Origin: a virus | Taxonomy: Duplodnaviria; Heunggongvirae; Uroviricota; Caudoviricetes | Strand: one strand, 5' to 3' | Virus record (IMG/VR): IMGVR_UViG_2563366923_000005 | Length of the DNA stretch: 16,693 bases | In this document: in pieces, positions 6,798 to 15,535 of the stretch | How the letters are laid out: each line of letters starts with the position of its first letter | Position numbering within the stretch: the first letter of the stretch is position 1 | Notes under the pieces: generated by a model | The model's input: only the letters and a program-made list of their open reading frames with translations | Told to the model about the DNA's origin: nothing | The model's database searches: none | Translations under genes and position numbers: made by a program

Positions 6798-7310
6798 ATG
6801 GACTTCGATTTTGATGATATGGCATACCCGGATATTTTTTTAATTTCCGGCGAGGAGTTTAAAGGAAGCCGGAACACAGGAAAAAATCAGGTAGATATCC
6901 CGTTTACTGACGAACCGCAAATTGAATTGGGCGATATTCTGATTCAGAAGATTGGAAGCCGTGAGTTAAGCCTTAAAGTTGTCGATCTTTCAATATCAAA
7001 GAATGGAACGCTGAACGTGGGTACAACGCATCCTCACTTACTGACGTTATCCGTAGAGAATCTTTCTTCCAACGCACACAGGACAGCAAAGAGTATGAAT
7101 ACTTTTAATATTGGCTCCGTCAGTGGTGAGCAAGTTCAAATAGGTGAAAGTAATCATATGCTGGTGAATATCAGTATTACTGAACTTGTCGAGAAAGTGG
7201 CTAACTCTGGCGATCCACAGGCTAAATCAATGTTGAAACAGTTACTGGAAAATAGCACCGTTGCCAGTATCGTTGGCGCTGGCGCTTCTGCGCTATTAGG
7301 TCTGCTTTAA
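6798..7310 (+). CDS. Hypothetical protein with C-terminal hydrophobic Gly/Ala-rich tail; accessory gene on the opposite strand
   Basis: 170-aa ORF with GGGGGA 4 nt before the ATG. C-terminus TVASIVGAGASALLGLL looks like a single tail anchor or glycine-zipper segment. About 43% GC in a sampled 60 nt. Only sizeable plus-strand gene inside the island besides the RHH gene. Confidence 0.6.
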   Translation: MDFDFDDMAYPDIFLISGEEFKGSRNTGKNQVDIPFTDEPQIELGDILIQKIGSRELSLKVVDLSISKNGTLNVGTTHPHLLTLSVENLSSNAHRTAKSMNTFNIGSVSGEQVQIGESNHMLVNISITELVEKVANSGDPQAKSMLKQLLENSTVASIVGAGASALLGLL

Positions 7311-7357: not shown

Positions 7358-7693
7358 TTATTCTTTATCCAGCCCCCACTGATAGAAAGCCCAGCTTGCC
7401 GTTGATTGTGCGCTATGGATAGCGTTCTCAAGGCCAGAGGTTGGGTACGACAAATCAGCCGCCATCCTCTGTAGAAGATCGAGGTAAGCGCTGGCGTCTT
7501 TCGACAACTCTTGCTCCCCTTCTTCCAGCCCAGACTGGTACGATTCCAGATCAAGCTTTTCAGAAGTGACAAACGCACTCAGAGCCAGAAAATCCGTCAC
7601 TGTAATCTCATCTTTATTTGAAAGCTCATCAACGGCGCTGTAGAGAAACTTAAGATCGCTCATATGCCCGTTATCTTTGCCAATCAGTTTCAT
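7358..7693 (-). CDS. Hypothetical acidic protein (accessory / possible interference or immunity function)
   Basis: 111-aa ORF with AGAGGT 6 nt upstream of the ATG at 7691-7693. Acidic and probably helical, with no recognisable catalytic motif. Lies immediately downstream of the iteron origin. Confidence 0.6.
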   Translation of the reverse strand: MKLIGKDNGHMSDLKFLYSAVDELSNKDEITVTDFLALSAFVTSEKLDLESYQSGLEEGEQELSKDASAYLDLLQRMAADLSYPTSGLENAIHSAQSTASWAFYQWGLDKE

Positions 7694-12018: not shown

Positions 12019-12798
12019 TTATTCAGCGTCAGCATTCGGCACCTCCGGCAATACGCCACCAGCGATCAGTTTCTTCGTTAACCACTGCTCCCCCTTCCCC
12101 GTCAGCATCGTTGTGAATGAGGCTCTTACTTCGCCATTCGTTTCATACGTTCCCTGGCGAACGGCAAAATAACCGCTATCGATATAACGCTGCATAGGCA
12201 GGTTGTGGCGCTGGCCACCGTTGATGAGAATCCCCTGTTGCCTCATCCAGCCGAATAATTTGAAGGGGCCAAGCCCTACGGCTTTGGCATAGTTGGAAAT
12301 GGAAATACCCTTGCTGATCTCCGCAACGCGATCAGCGAAATCAACTTTTGGCGCAGCGGCCACCAGCCGGTTTTCAAGTTCGCTTGCCTTTTCGGCCAGA
12401 TCAGCAGCAAGGCGCAGGGCTTCCGGTAACGTCTGGGGGATATTAGCGGCGGCTTTTGCCTGGCGTTCGCAGTTGATGAAGTAGCGGCGCACCTCCCGCC
12501 CTTTTTCGTTGCGCTCAACCATTGCCAGCTCTTTACCCATGTCGATGGTGATCAGGTAATCATGTGCAATTTGTTGGCGATATTTTGCGCTCCCCGAAAC
12601 GGGGGCGCTCAAATTTTCAACCACCGTAAAATCTACACCAGCAGTAAAACCATACTGGCTGATACGCCCCTTAATCCATGTGGTGAAATCACGCCCAACG
12701 CCGAGAAACTCATGGAGTTTTTTTGCACTGACCAGCGATACCGTCACGCCGCCAATATTTCCGGGGTTAACCGGAACCAACTCATTTAATTTTTGCAT
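12019..12798 (-). CDS. Phage antirepressor (AntA N-terminal domain + KilAC C-terminal domain)
   Basis: 259 aa from ATG at 12796-12798. HDYLITIDMGKELAMVERNEKGREVRRYFINCERQ matches the AntA signature; C-terminal NLPMQRYIDSGYFAVRQGTYETNGEVRASFTTMLTGKGEQWLTKKL matches the KilAC/ANT pattern. Confidence 0.85.
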   Translation of the reverse strand: MQKLNELVPVNPGNIGGVTVSLVSAKKLHEFLGVGRDFTTWIKGRISQYGFTAGVDFTVVENLSAPVSGSAKYRQQIAHDYLITIDMGKELAMVERNEKGREVRRYFINCERQAKAAANIPQTLPEALRLAADLAEKASELENRLVAAAPKVDFADRVAEISKGISISNYAKAVGLGPFKLFGWMRQQGILINGGQRHNLPMQRYIDSGYFAVRQGTYETNGEVRASFTTMLTGKGEQWLTKKLIAGGVLPEVPNADAE

Positions 12799-12808
12799 AG
12801 CGCCCCCC

Positions 12809-13093
12809 TTACGCGGATTTACGGTTGTAAGGGGTGTTGACGTTCTCAACAGCAGGTGGATTGCGAACCCACCAAAGAACATCTGACAGAAGCCATGCGC
12901 AACTATTACGGCCAAAGTGGCAGCGTGGCGGGAATTTACCTTCGTTCTCCATATACCAGCGGGTGGAACGGGAAAGGCTGGTTATTTCGAAGCATTCACT
13001 TTCACGAATACGGCGATCAAACTTAATGCCATATTCTGCGAGAATGGTGCGGCGTTGTTCTGGTGTTGGCGGGGTAAAACGAGTATTTGACAT
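12809..13093 (-). CDS. alpA: AlpA-family transcriptional regulator (excisionase-like)
   Basis: 94 aa; LSRSTRWYMENEGKFPP...GRNSCAWLLSDVLWW fits the AlpA HTH pattern. GGAGGA RBS. Immediately upstream of the antirepressor gene. Confidence 0.8.
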   Translation of the reverse strand: MSNTRFTPPTPEQRRTILAEYGIKFDRRIRESECFEITSLSRSTRWYMENEGKFPPRCHFGRNSCAWLLSDVLWWVRNPPAVENVNTPYNRKSA

Positions 13094-13187
13094 ACTTCCT
13101 CCACTTAACGCAATCAGAAGGAGCCTTTCCTGTCTGTTCTTGCGTTGTGGGGGAAGTATTTGTCTAAAGTAAATTAATAAAAATGGC

Positions 13188-13264
13188 TTCTAAAATTTAA
13201 AAAGGCGTGTTTAATTCTAAAAAGGGTAATCTAATGATTAGAACACCCTTTCTAACGTTTAGAA
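13188..13264. repeat. Cluster of TTCTAA / TTAGAA hexamers in the alpA upstream region
   Basis: TTCTAA at 13188, 13215 and 13250; TTAGAA at 13238 and 13259, including TTAGAA-CACCCT-TTCTAA-CGT-TTAGAA. AT-rich 180-bp intergenic region. Confidence 0.3.
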
Positions 13265-13274
13265 GCTACTACAA

Positions 13275-14216
13275 TTAAAACTTAAAGTGCCTACTAATGT
13301 ATGAGGTAATTGTGTCAACGCTCTTGACCGGGCATTGTCCGTCAGGAAATAAGTGCACTCTGTCGGAAAGTTCTCTGGCCCATGCTGAGAAATTGTAGCT
13401 CCCATCTTTTTTCAAGCACTTTTCATTGAAAATATCAGAATTTGTTTCTTTGAATTTTATTGCAGCACTTAAAATTAATAGTTCATTTCGTGCATGTTTT
13501 TCTTTTGCACTTTCTGAGCGTTTATTAATACTATTTTTTGAATCAGAGTCTAAATCAGGTCGTTCAATATCATTGAGCATTGGCAGCTTATCGAAATCAA
13601 GGCCGCTTTCCATAAGCCGTTTAATATCATAATTAGTAACCCATAAATCATCATACCCGGCTTCAAACTCATAAGGGTCGAAATTAAACCTCTTGCCATT
13701 AGCCTGATCGATAAAAGGTTGGGCTGGCAGAATCTGAATTACTGGAGTTTCACCGCCTGTGAGGCACGGGAAAAATCCGGGGAAAAAATCCTTCACAGGT
13801 AAAGATGACTCAAACTGATCGGGCATTACCCGCCACAGACCTAATGCAAAGCCATATCCGACAAGGAACCCTTTACTTTCTTGTTCCGTAAAGATGTCTG
13901 AACCAGATAATAGTTTATCAGGTTCAAAATAACGGCCATTAGTAAATTCAATAAAAGAGTGATTCGTTATCGCGCGGGTTTGCCCTGACATAGAATTAAA
14001 AGTACGAGGAAAATATAGTGATGAATACCAATCCTTTACATCATTAAAATCTTCACGAAGAAGGATTCGGCAGTGAAACCTTTTCAGCATCATGCTTATT
14101 TCGATTTTATTTTCAATAGCAAGGTTGATCAAATCTGACGGTTCAACCCCCAGAAATGATGCACCTCTGGACAATCTACAATATGAAAATGGAATCTTTA
14201 TTTCTTTTTCTGCCAT
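13275..14216 (-). CDS. Hypothetical protein, AT-rich cargo gene between int and alpA (candidate defence / accessory function)
   Basis: 313-aa ORF with GAGGG RBS. 27% GC in a sampled 60 nt, far below the head genes. No family recognised by eye. Contains YDDLWVTNYDIK, a D-x8-D-x-K arrangement weakly reminiscent of a PD-(D/E)xK core. Confidence 0.65.
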   Translation of the reverse strand: MAEKEIKIPFSYCRLSRGASFLGVEPSDLINLAIENKIEISMMLKRFHCRILLREDFNDVKDWYSSLYFPRTFNSMSGQTRAITNHSFIEFTNGRYFEPDKLLSGSDIFTEQESKGFLVGYGFALGLWRVMPDQFESSLPVKDFFPGFFPCLTGGETPVIQILPAQPFIDQANGKRFNFDPYEFEAGYDDLWVTNYDIKRLMESGLDFDKLPMLNDIERPDLDSDSKNSINKRSESAKEKHARNELLILSAAIKFKETNSDIFNEKCLKKDGSYNFSAWARELSDRVHLFPDGQCPVKSVDTITSYISRHFKF

Positions 14217-14308
14217 AACGCTACCCTCAACGCCCCTAATTAACTTGCGAGCCAGGCGGGTAGGGTTTCCCGCTTTTCGGTTGGCCGACCTAGACTCGCA
14301 AGACCAGT

Positions 14309-15535
14309 TTAATCTCTATTCGCTACAGTTAACAGAACCACATTTTGATGATTACCCGCAAGAAGTTCTAAGCGATCATACCACTTATTCAGCGCGTCCA
14401 GTTTTTCCGGCAGATACAGACTACGGTTATAAATCGCCATAACCCCTGGCATTGAGTGGCCCAGCAACTGTTCAACAACGTGCGGAGCTATACCCATATT
14501 ATTCATATGCGTTGCAAGCGTTCGCCGTAGATCATGCAATGTCCACGGTTCAGAATGCCCCAGTTTTTTATAAACACTACGGCCCCACTGGCTAACCGCT
14601 TCGCTATTCTTCACAACCCCAAGAAGGTAGCCGGATGATTTTGTTTCATCGTGGAGCATTTCAATAAATGAACGCATCGCCTCTGGAACTGGACGCACAA
14701 TCTTTTCACCGCCTTTACTATGCGCTTTTGGTACTGTCCACACCCACGCCTCCATATCCCATTCGGCCCACTCTGACAATCTGGCCTCCTGGGTGCGGCA
14801 ACCAAACAAAGTGGTGATCCTGAGTAAGTTTGTGTAGTAAGGCAGAAAAACATCGCCGGACGATATAGCAGCCCACAATCCCCCAACCTCTTTATCTTTC
14901 AATACCCGATCTTTTTTCGCCTGCTTTTTACCAACATCGGGAATACTCAAATCTTCAAGGGCGGTACTGACGGCGTAACGGCGAACGCGGCAGAATTTCA
15001 GAGCCTGCTTACACATCTGGAATACATAACCCGCAGCAACTGGCGTTTTCTTTTTCATTCTGTCGAAGCAGTCAAGCCAGTATCGGGTTTCGCAGTCAGC
15101 GAGCGCCATTTTCCCAATGTAAGGGTAAATATGTTTGCGTAGCTCCGCTTTGTGCCGCTCAACGTTCGCACGATTTTCTTCCGCATATTCGCGTATCCAG
15201 TATTCGATAGCTTCCTGCACCGTGACCGGTTTAAGCGTTTCCTGAGTAGTTAGCGCCAATTGGTGCTTTGGGTCTTTACCAGAGGCCAACCACTGACGAC
15301 ATTTATCACGCGAGGAACGGGCCTCTTTGAGACTCATATCAGGGTAGCGCCCCAGAGTCAGCCGATGCAGCTTCTGCCCGTCGAGTCGGTAAGTAAACAC
15401 CCAGCTAATGCCACCAGCTTTCGTTACCTTAGCACTCAACCCGGCACCATCAGCATAAAACTCAATCTTACTGGCCGGGATGCCATGTAATCCCTTTAAC
15501 TTCCTGTCGCTCAGTTTGTTAAGTTCGCCAGCCAT
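14309..15535 (-). CDS. int: Tyrosine site-specific integrase (P4-type)
   Basis: 408 aa; C-terminal catalytic region with WTLHDLRRTLATHM, LLGHS and AIYNRS (R, H-x-x-R, Y). Lies at the element terminus next to the chromosomal junction. Confidence 0.9.
   Translation of the reverse strand: MAGELNKLSDRKLKGLHGIPASKIEFYADGAGLSAKVTKAGGISWVFTYRLDGQKLHRLTLGRYPDMSLKEARSSRDKCRQWLASGKDPKHQLALTTQETLKPVTVQEAIEYWIREYAEENRANVERHKAELRKHIYPYIGKMALADCETRYWLDCFDRMKKKTPVAAGYVFQMCKQALKFCRVRRYAVSTALEDLSIPDVGKKQAKKDRVLKDKEVGGLWAAISSGDVFLPYYTNLLRITTLFGCRTQEARLSEWAEWDMEAWVWTVPKAHSKGGEKIVRPVPEAMRSFIEMLHDETKSSGYLLGVVKNSEAVSQWGRSVYKKLGHSEPWTLHDLRRTLATHMNNMGIAPHVVEQLLGHSMPGVMAIYNRSLYLPEKLDALNKWYDRLELLAGNHQNVVLLTVANRD

Follow-up and report, generated by a model that had tools for sequence, protein, structure and literature searches.

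The window, by which we mean the whole stretch of DNA analysed (16,693 bp), is a satellite island in which int, ORF313 and alpA lie in the same direction, all on the minus strand (Table 1). The island also carries AntA/KilAC antirepressor-like and icd-like genes, a DUF927 primase gene that is co-directional with int and alpA, and morphogenesis genes for an HK97-type capsid, protease, portal, head-tail connector, HNH, TerS and TerL; no tail genes were found in it. Its GC content is 0.33-0.36 over 13100-13300, low over ORF313 and about 0.5 in the rest. An identical region lies between fis and yhdJ in E. coli KFu015 (RefSeq annotation), and the att block ACGGCATGAAC at 15710-15720 matches the fis-PICI identity block described in PMC10111431. 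This placement and this match identify the window as a capsid-forming, fis-integrated Gram-negative PICI.

In such PICIs AlpA is the essential activator of the satellite cycle (PMC6092414). Its gene is turned on by an unidentified helper-phage function and then autoactivates (PMC6092414; PMC11773190; bioRxiv 10.1101/2022.09.08.507074), and Gram-negative PICIs have no known repressor (PMC6092414; PMC11773190).

The 99%-identity cluster of ORF313 (P0001) comprises 393 sequences assigned by name to Klebsiella pneumoniae, and copies that are nearly identical occur in Enterobacter hormaechei, Pluralibacter gergoviae and E. coli, a spread consistent with reports of identical capsid-forming PICIs in different genera. 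Elsewhere in the island, two ORFs of 170 and 111 aa (6798-7310, plus strand; 7358-7693, minus strand) stand between the capsid gene and the primase gene. The first is the sole plus-strand gene within the island, neither has a PADLOC match, and their position adjoins pri, where an accessory/immune region of PICIs has been reported (PMC11364771).

Table 1. Position of genes and sequence features from int to alpA in the window.
Feature	Position	Strand	Description
int	14309-15535	minus	Pfam match
ORF313	13275-14216	minus	313 aa; phrog_7144; accession WP_001547840.1; no Pfam family
O1	13250-13264	none	TTCTAAacgTTAGAA; perfect dyad (0 mismatches), 10 bp past the ORF313 stop codon; candidate operator
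O2 dyad	13229-13243	none	1 mismatch; inner arms of the hairpin
O2 hairpin and T-run	13219-13249	minus	AGGGTG-TTCTAAtcaTTAGAT-TACCCT, then TTTTT
Orphan half-site	13215-13220	minus	TTAGAA (alpA sense); directly 3' of the T-run; no dyad partner
O3	13188-13202	none	TTTTAAattTTAGAA; 1 mismatch; candidate operator beside weak promoter candidates
Weak promoter candidates	13155-13179	minus	putative; read by eye from alignments
alpA 5' leader	13092-13159	minus	conserved three-tier hairpin, -33.1 kcal/mol, z -6.9
alpA	12809-13093	minus	Pfam Phage_AlpA PF05930 (E 2e-10); directly downstream of the hexamer region

Dyads, hairpin and leader between ORF313 and alpA

An initial annotation had pointed to five copies of the hexamer TTCTAA/TTAGAA, in both orientations, within 80 bp. 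We confirmed this cluster: copies start at 13188 (+), 13215 (+), 13238 (-), 13250 (+) and 13259 (-), and five of the nine copies in the whole window fall in 77 bp (13188-13264). In dinucleotide-preserving shuffles of 13094-13274 (GC 0.35), at least five copies of this hexamer within 80 bp were never seen (0/5000), and any hexamer reached that density once (1/5000). These copies do not amount to five equivalent sites: what is conserved is a 15-bp dyad, TTCTAA-N3-TTAGAA, with three occurrences (O1, O2 and O3) next to one orphan half-site, which wobble-pairs with the right half of O1 in the RNA fold. A dyad search of the whole 16.7-kb window allowing up to two mismatches returned these three matches only, all in the ORF313-alpA spacer, with centres 21 bp (O1-O2), 41 bp (O2-O3) and 62 bp (O1-O3) apart. 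The palindrome TTAGAA-N6-TTCTAA that the annotation had singled out is present as written at 13238-13255, but it is the junction of the neighbouring dyads O2 and O1 rather than a repeated unit. Similarly, the region does lie directly upstream of alpA, but only 13160-13274 is AT-rich, and 13094-13159 belongs to a structured leader.

O2 forms the inner stem of a GGGTG...CACCC hairpin with a T-run behind it and accordingly resembles an intrinsic terminator for ORF313, placed at the end of the int-ORF313 transcription unit. The hairpin begins about 25 bp past the ORF313 stop codon, and its RNA fold reaches -11.9 kcal/mol (z -4.3) for the core and -17.4 kcal/mol (z -5.3) when extended; it is a stable G+C-based stem-loop with a U-run past a stop codon, as in rho-independent terminators. 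The orthologous hairpin of a Klebsiella locus (L003) was called as an intrinsic terminator by the scanner. Across seven lineages, 3 of the 12 stem pairs were changed on both sides, with shuffle controls for covariation not significant. O2 shares with intrinsic terminators the G+C-rich stem base, a 3-nt loop, the T-run and the site just past the stop codon. It differs from them in that its inner stem copies the sequence of the neighbouring dyad, and the T-run of its orthologues is short or interrupted in some lineages (Serratia, Xenorhabdus).

The consensus scanner called no sigma-70-like promoter in this spacer, nor in that of two relatives. By eye, two -10-like elements can be read: TATTAA (13174-13179), which follows the left half of O3 at a distance of 17 bp, and AATACT (13155-13160), which is kept in all ORF313-type loci and reads AATATT in the island of ET670. 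The leader hairpin that follows pairs CUUCCCCCAC (13147-13156) with the Shine-Dalgarno (SD) region GUGGAGGAAG and the AUG. A consensus fold of six loci has 19 pairs, two of them compensatory. Pairing of the CUCCAC/GUGGAG type occurs in the leaders of most related islands, with compensatory variants in Xenorhabdus (CCUCAC/GUGAGG) and in the locus L013 (UGCCUCC/GGAGGCA). An anti-SD longest-helix test run locus by locus was significant in only a few loci, and pairing probabilities gave no signal of SD sequestration, shuffled upstream sequence pairing with the SD equally often. RNAalifold found no common register for all 13 leaders, and no Rfam family matched 12700-13500 at E <= 1.

The alpA promoter (PalpA) of EcCICFT073 and EcCIMP1 belongs to the same gene at the same island position, with the same expected biology, but the upstream stretch of alpA that is conserved from island to island does not include the element described here. 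In the literature searched, no cis-element has been described for alpA promoters.

Linkage of the dyads to the int-alpA cassette

Homologues of ORF313 are rare (43 representatives among 1.84 billion proteins), and wherever they were found the gene order int-ORF313 family-alpA is kept. The three sites, at +21 and +41/42 bp, are present where the ORF313 homologue is at least 66% identical or shares the C-terminal module: in Klebsiella (79%), Serratia (66%), an IMG/VR relative (78%) and Pluralibacter, and also in two metagenomic chimeras that share only the C-terminal module. Centres 21 and 41-42 bp apart were measured in the window and in L003, L011, L013, L017, L044 and L045. Position and spacing of O3 are unchanged in Klebsiella, Serratia, L011, L013 and L044, and O1 and O3 are 63 bp apart in Serratia. 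The sites stay with ORF313 in loci that differ in int, in the att site and in what follows alpA, and the 5-17 kb of flanks fetched around ORF313-type loci held no further dyad sites. In Xenorhabdus (43% identity), O1 and the hairpin are retained.

Among 120 metagenome contigs matching one site, three had the triple arrangement, exactly those encoding ORF313; the scan pattern comprised 16 bases and was unspecific, and the other 117 matches were single chance sites. A scan of genome collections for further ORF313-family loci returned Pluralibacter only, identical to the window. More distant family members (29-51% identity) have other palindromes right after the stop codon, some of them of the 6-N3-6 form. 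At the position of the cluster we found TAGAGAggggTCTCTA and GTATAGcgcCTATAC in Yersinia, TACTAAcctaTTAGTA in L021, and ACTGTACaggTACAGT and ACAGTAgaaCTACTGT in L024.

AlpA itself does not follow these changes. E. coli ET670 and two further genomes have a 96%-identical alpA at the same att site with a DUF6387 gene in place of ORF313; in these islands the dyads are absent, and the window is no longer matched beyond about 60 bp upstream of the alpA ATG. Further E. coli islands of this alpA type carry other cassettes and no TTCTAA dyads. Across loci with differing palindromes the identity of AlpA is 61-90%, its HTH segment hardly varies, and in L021 and L023, where the palindromes are unrelated, identity is 80-83%. 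Because the dyads disappear or change with the cassette while AlpA stays 61-90% identical, the cluster is a property of the cassette and independent of AlpA. The cluster does not belong to a control region conserved with alpA itself, as the ET670-type islands have the gene without it. Judged from sequence, the cluster is a real, conserved and previously undescribed cis-element of an ordinary kind, a cassette-linked terminator plus candidate dyad operator, rather than an operator shared by every alpA.

Among islands with the same alpA type, at least five unrelated or chimeric cassettes occupied the int-alpA slot: a phrog_7144 gene (window, 13275-14216), a DUF6387/phrog_23422 gene (L002, 3497-4303), a 249-aa ORF (L030, 700-1449), a 274-aa chimera (L031, 691-1515) and a 216-aa ORF followed by 570 bp of non-coding DNA (L032, 392-1042). 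Members of the ORF313 family also exchange N-terminal, middle and C-terminal modules among themselves. On the other side of ORF313, the spacer towards int (14217-14308, minus strand) has a high G+C content and a long inverted repeat, CTTGCGAG...CTCGCAAG, and folds with unexceptional energy (z -1.65). By megablast, parts of it, along with the adjoining int end or ORF313 start, are kept in about 19 other E. coli islands, where the annotated features are hypothetical proteins or none. This spacer may be the upstream boundary of the exchangeable cassette.

O1 and O3 as candidate protein-binding sites

We compared O1 and O3 across six lineages, which are few and related. Pairwise identity was 0.92 in the half-sites of O1 and 0.27 in its central 3 bp, 0.79 in the half-sites of O3 and 0.38 in its centre, and 0.56 in the remaining spacer columns. 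No random set of columns was as conserved as the O1/O3 half-sites (0/20000), and a 6-3-6 mask placed elsewhere never rose above 0.75. A distance of 62-63 bp, or six helical turns, separates the two sites, and both are in phase with the centre of the hairpin. Both the conserved half-sites around a free centre and the phased multi-site spacing of dyad operators were thus found. No compensatory changes occurred at O1 or O3 in any compared lineage, where substitutions break the pairing. The half-site conservation, the fixed phased spacing and the absence of compensation together give O1 and O3 the classical signature of sites for a dimeric binder, and it is rather probable from these alignments that some protein binds them. 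The multi-site operator proposed in the initial annotation is therefore partly supported: O1 and O3 show the conservation of dimer sites, the helical phase and a position from which alpA could be gated, but O2 is a terminator-type hairpin with compensatory changes and the hexamer at 13215-13220 is an orphan.

A first alternative needs no binder. The hexamers would be by-products of AT-rich 3' UTR hairpins (one small, one a terminator, and a third) that end and stabilise the ORF313 mRNA, conserved only through recent shared ancestry and physical linkage to the gene. O2, which is clearly a hairpin with a T-run, suits this explanation, as do the Serratia O3, which extends to a 12-pair palindrome and was called terminator-like by the scanner, the hairpins that also follow other cassettes (for example L031), and the first palindrome of distant relatives, which overlaps the base of a larger hairpin; the covariation statistics, moreover, are not significant. 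However, as RNA hairpins O1 (-2.2 kcal/mol, z -0.6) and O3 (-1.5 kcal/mol) are no better than shuffles, and their substitutions disrupt pairing without ever being compensated. The half-sites are also conserved far above the loop-equivalent centres and the other spacer, and the spacing is constant at 21 and 41-42 bp. We therefore regard this explanation as unlikely.

Closest to the helper regulator considered in the initial annotation is the idea that the alpA inducer, a helper-phage protein, targets the dyads and activates transcription or overrides the terminator. The dependence of alpA expression on a helper phage, through a factor that is unidentified (PMC6092414; PMC11773190), fits this idea, and so does the spacer without a good promoter, as expected if transcription is activator-dependent. 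Unrelated phage contigs, furthermore, use the identical 15-mer TTCTAATCATTAGAA as a paired site, which may mean that phage proteins of such specificity exist. Yet sister islands, which are presumably inducible because they have the same alpA, lack the sites; the site sequence varies with the cassette gene and not with anything known of helpers; and the phage contigs bearing the 15-mer are high in GC and share no protein with the island. Taken together, these points leave a helper protein at the dyads quite improbable.

Three IMG/VR contigs of GC 0.56-0.58 (L034, 10914-10985; L035, 3839-3923; L036, 6329-6405) each contain two exact copies of the 15-mer TTCTAATCATTAGAA, 57-70 bp apart, in long non-coding regions flanked by conserved proteins of about 200 and 265 aa. 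This pair is probably an unrelated operator of the same sequence. Scans of viral contigs for paired perfect dyads returned unrelated phages only, with no shared proteins. In another IMG/VR contig (L028, 3613-3648; GC 0.41), TTCTAAGGGTTAGAA is repeated with a 21-bp period, and the repeat ends 18 bp upstream of a 160-aa ORF directly before a large-terminase-like gene; an unrelated phage might use it for packaging or regulation.

A host nucleoid protein (H-NS, IHF or Fis) that silences or bends an AT-rich, horizontally acquired stretch is very unlikely to account for the dyads. The low GC of 13100-13300 against that of the rest of the island, and the position of the island next to fis, are what such a protein might lead one to expect, but exact 15-bp dyads with a free centre are not required by these proteins, unrelated palindromes replace the motif in relatives from similar hosts, and no IHF or Fis consensus match was seen by eye. 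Autoregulatory AlpA sites can be given hardly any credence. AlpA does activate its own promoter in EcCICFT073 and EcCIMP1 (PMC6092414; PMC11773190), but the palindromes are completely different between loci whose AlpA is conserved and has a nearly invariant HTH, ET670 lacks them, and the conserved 60-bp leader is the likelier place for any AlpA site; AlpA was rejected as the O1/O3 binder on the grounds that the dyads are neither present with the same AlpA nor co-vary with it. Arm-type integrase sites were dismissed, given the roughly 2.4 kb that separate the cluster from the att block.

ORF313 and a proposed control of alpA

We then considered the cassette's own product as the binder. ORF313 consists of an N-terminal module of about 45 aa, a variable middle and a four-helix C-terminal module. 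The N-terminal module was modelled as a helix-turn-helix with a beta hairpin (pLDDT about 76-83), and the C-terminal one was modelled with confidence (pLDDT about 88) and has no known fold. Fold matches of the N-terminal model were almost only winged-HTH proteins (MntR, MarR, BldC, P2 Cox, Xis), none of them significant (E >= 0.68, probability <= 0.44, TM <= 0.52); against the PDB, neither the full-length nor the N-terminal AlphaFold model had a significant match. No DNA-binding family was assigned by Pfam, PDB sequence profiles or hhalign against AlpA, and the PDB profiles of the N- and C-terminal modules gave chance matches only.

Several relationships of ORF313 were rejected: homology of its N-terminus to AlpA/Xis (hhalign probability 0.4%), identity with YfjH of CP4-57 (no similarity was found, and alpA and yfjH are divergent), kinship with DUF6387 (BLASTP E 0.17) and membership of a known defence system (no PADLOC match).

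Site type tracks the adjacent C-terminal module: the chimeric proteins P0012-P0015 have a very different N-terminal domain and keep the TTCTAA sites, and a Yersinia protein has an N-terminus similar to that of ORF313 and different palindromes. This association could be plain physical linkage. ORF313 is the best, though weakly backed, candidate for the binder, and we put forward its binding to O1/O3 only tentatively, as possible but short of an even chance. ORF313 may instead be cargo with no regulatory role, since the int-alpA slot, at the 5' end of PICIs, is a published hotspot of immune cargo genes (PMC11364771).

Read in the direction of alpA, the ORF313 stop codon is followed by O1, the O2 hairpin with its T-run, O3, a very weak promoter region and the structured leader. 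For this layout we favour, with a little less than even confidence, a swappable cassette 3' flank in which a terminator is combined with O1 and O3 bound by a dimeric protein, for which ORF313 is the best candidate, that gates alpA. The hairpin would halt int-ORF313 transcripts and insulate alpA, which would therefore be silent in the integrated state. A dimeric DNA-binding protein on O1 and O3 would set the level of transcription entering alpA, either by occluding a weak promoter at O3 or by forming a roadblock or loop around the terminator. Parsimony favours the cassette's own product as this binder; ORF313 would then be an island-encoded regulator of alpA, most simply a repressor, whose relief would start the known positive autoregulation of AlpA. 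The structured leader could act as an extra translational check on read-through RNA. Anatomy, conservation, spacing, linkage to the cassette and independence from AlpA are what we observed at the locus; protein binding, the identity of the binder and the sign of the regulation are what we infer.

The arrangement resembles the OR/OL operators of the lambda/P22/434 type, in which conserved half-sites likewise surround free centres in two or three sites of some 15 bp, set a whole number of helical turns apart next to an early promoter. It differs from them in having no CI/Cro-like gene, no divergent promoter pair and no recognisable promoter, and in its middle site, which is a terminator hairpin. 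A second comparison is with Stl (Rpr) of SaPIs and Gram-positive PICIs, likewise a satellite-encoded and highly variable regulator whose gene adjoins int, on the int side, whose sites gate the gene that opens the induction cascade and which differs between islands. However, the Stl operators lie in the stl-str intergenic region and Stl is divergent from its target, whereas int, ORF313 and alpA are co-directional, with the sites downstream of ORF313 and a terminator between it and alpA, so the organisation of Stl/Rpr is not the one found here. Stl also has a recognisable HTH, and ORF313 none by sequence (no Pfam HTH); Gram-negative PICIs are reported to have an activator, AlpA, and no known repressor (PMC6092414); and sister islands do without the ORF313 cassette.

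A more far-reaching reading, which we consider doubtful, is that phrog_7144 proteins are cassette-borne master regulators of Gram-negative PICIs that silence the satellite by binding their own dyads around a terminator just before alpA and are neutralised by a helper-phage product; they would be an independently arisen functional analogue of Stl, exchanged as a module that includes the operators. Helper specificity would in that case be set by the variable int-alpA slot. Were no protein to bind O1 and O3, the spacer would be an ordinary terminator region of little significance.

How helpers switch on alpA, and whether these PICIs have a repressor, have been open questions since their description in 2018 (PMC6092414), and can be addressed with what the element offers: a delimited fragment of 115 bp, two well-defined dyads and a single candidate protein. 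Our comparison also indicates a modular control of entry into alpA, with one and the same alpA standing behind different cassettes of which only some have operator-like sites. Near-identical capsid-forming PICIs circulate in E. coli, Klebsiella, Enterobacter and Pluralibacter, and this modularity of the cassette could explain differences in inducibility and helper range among them.
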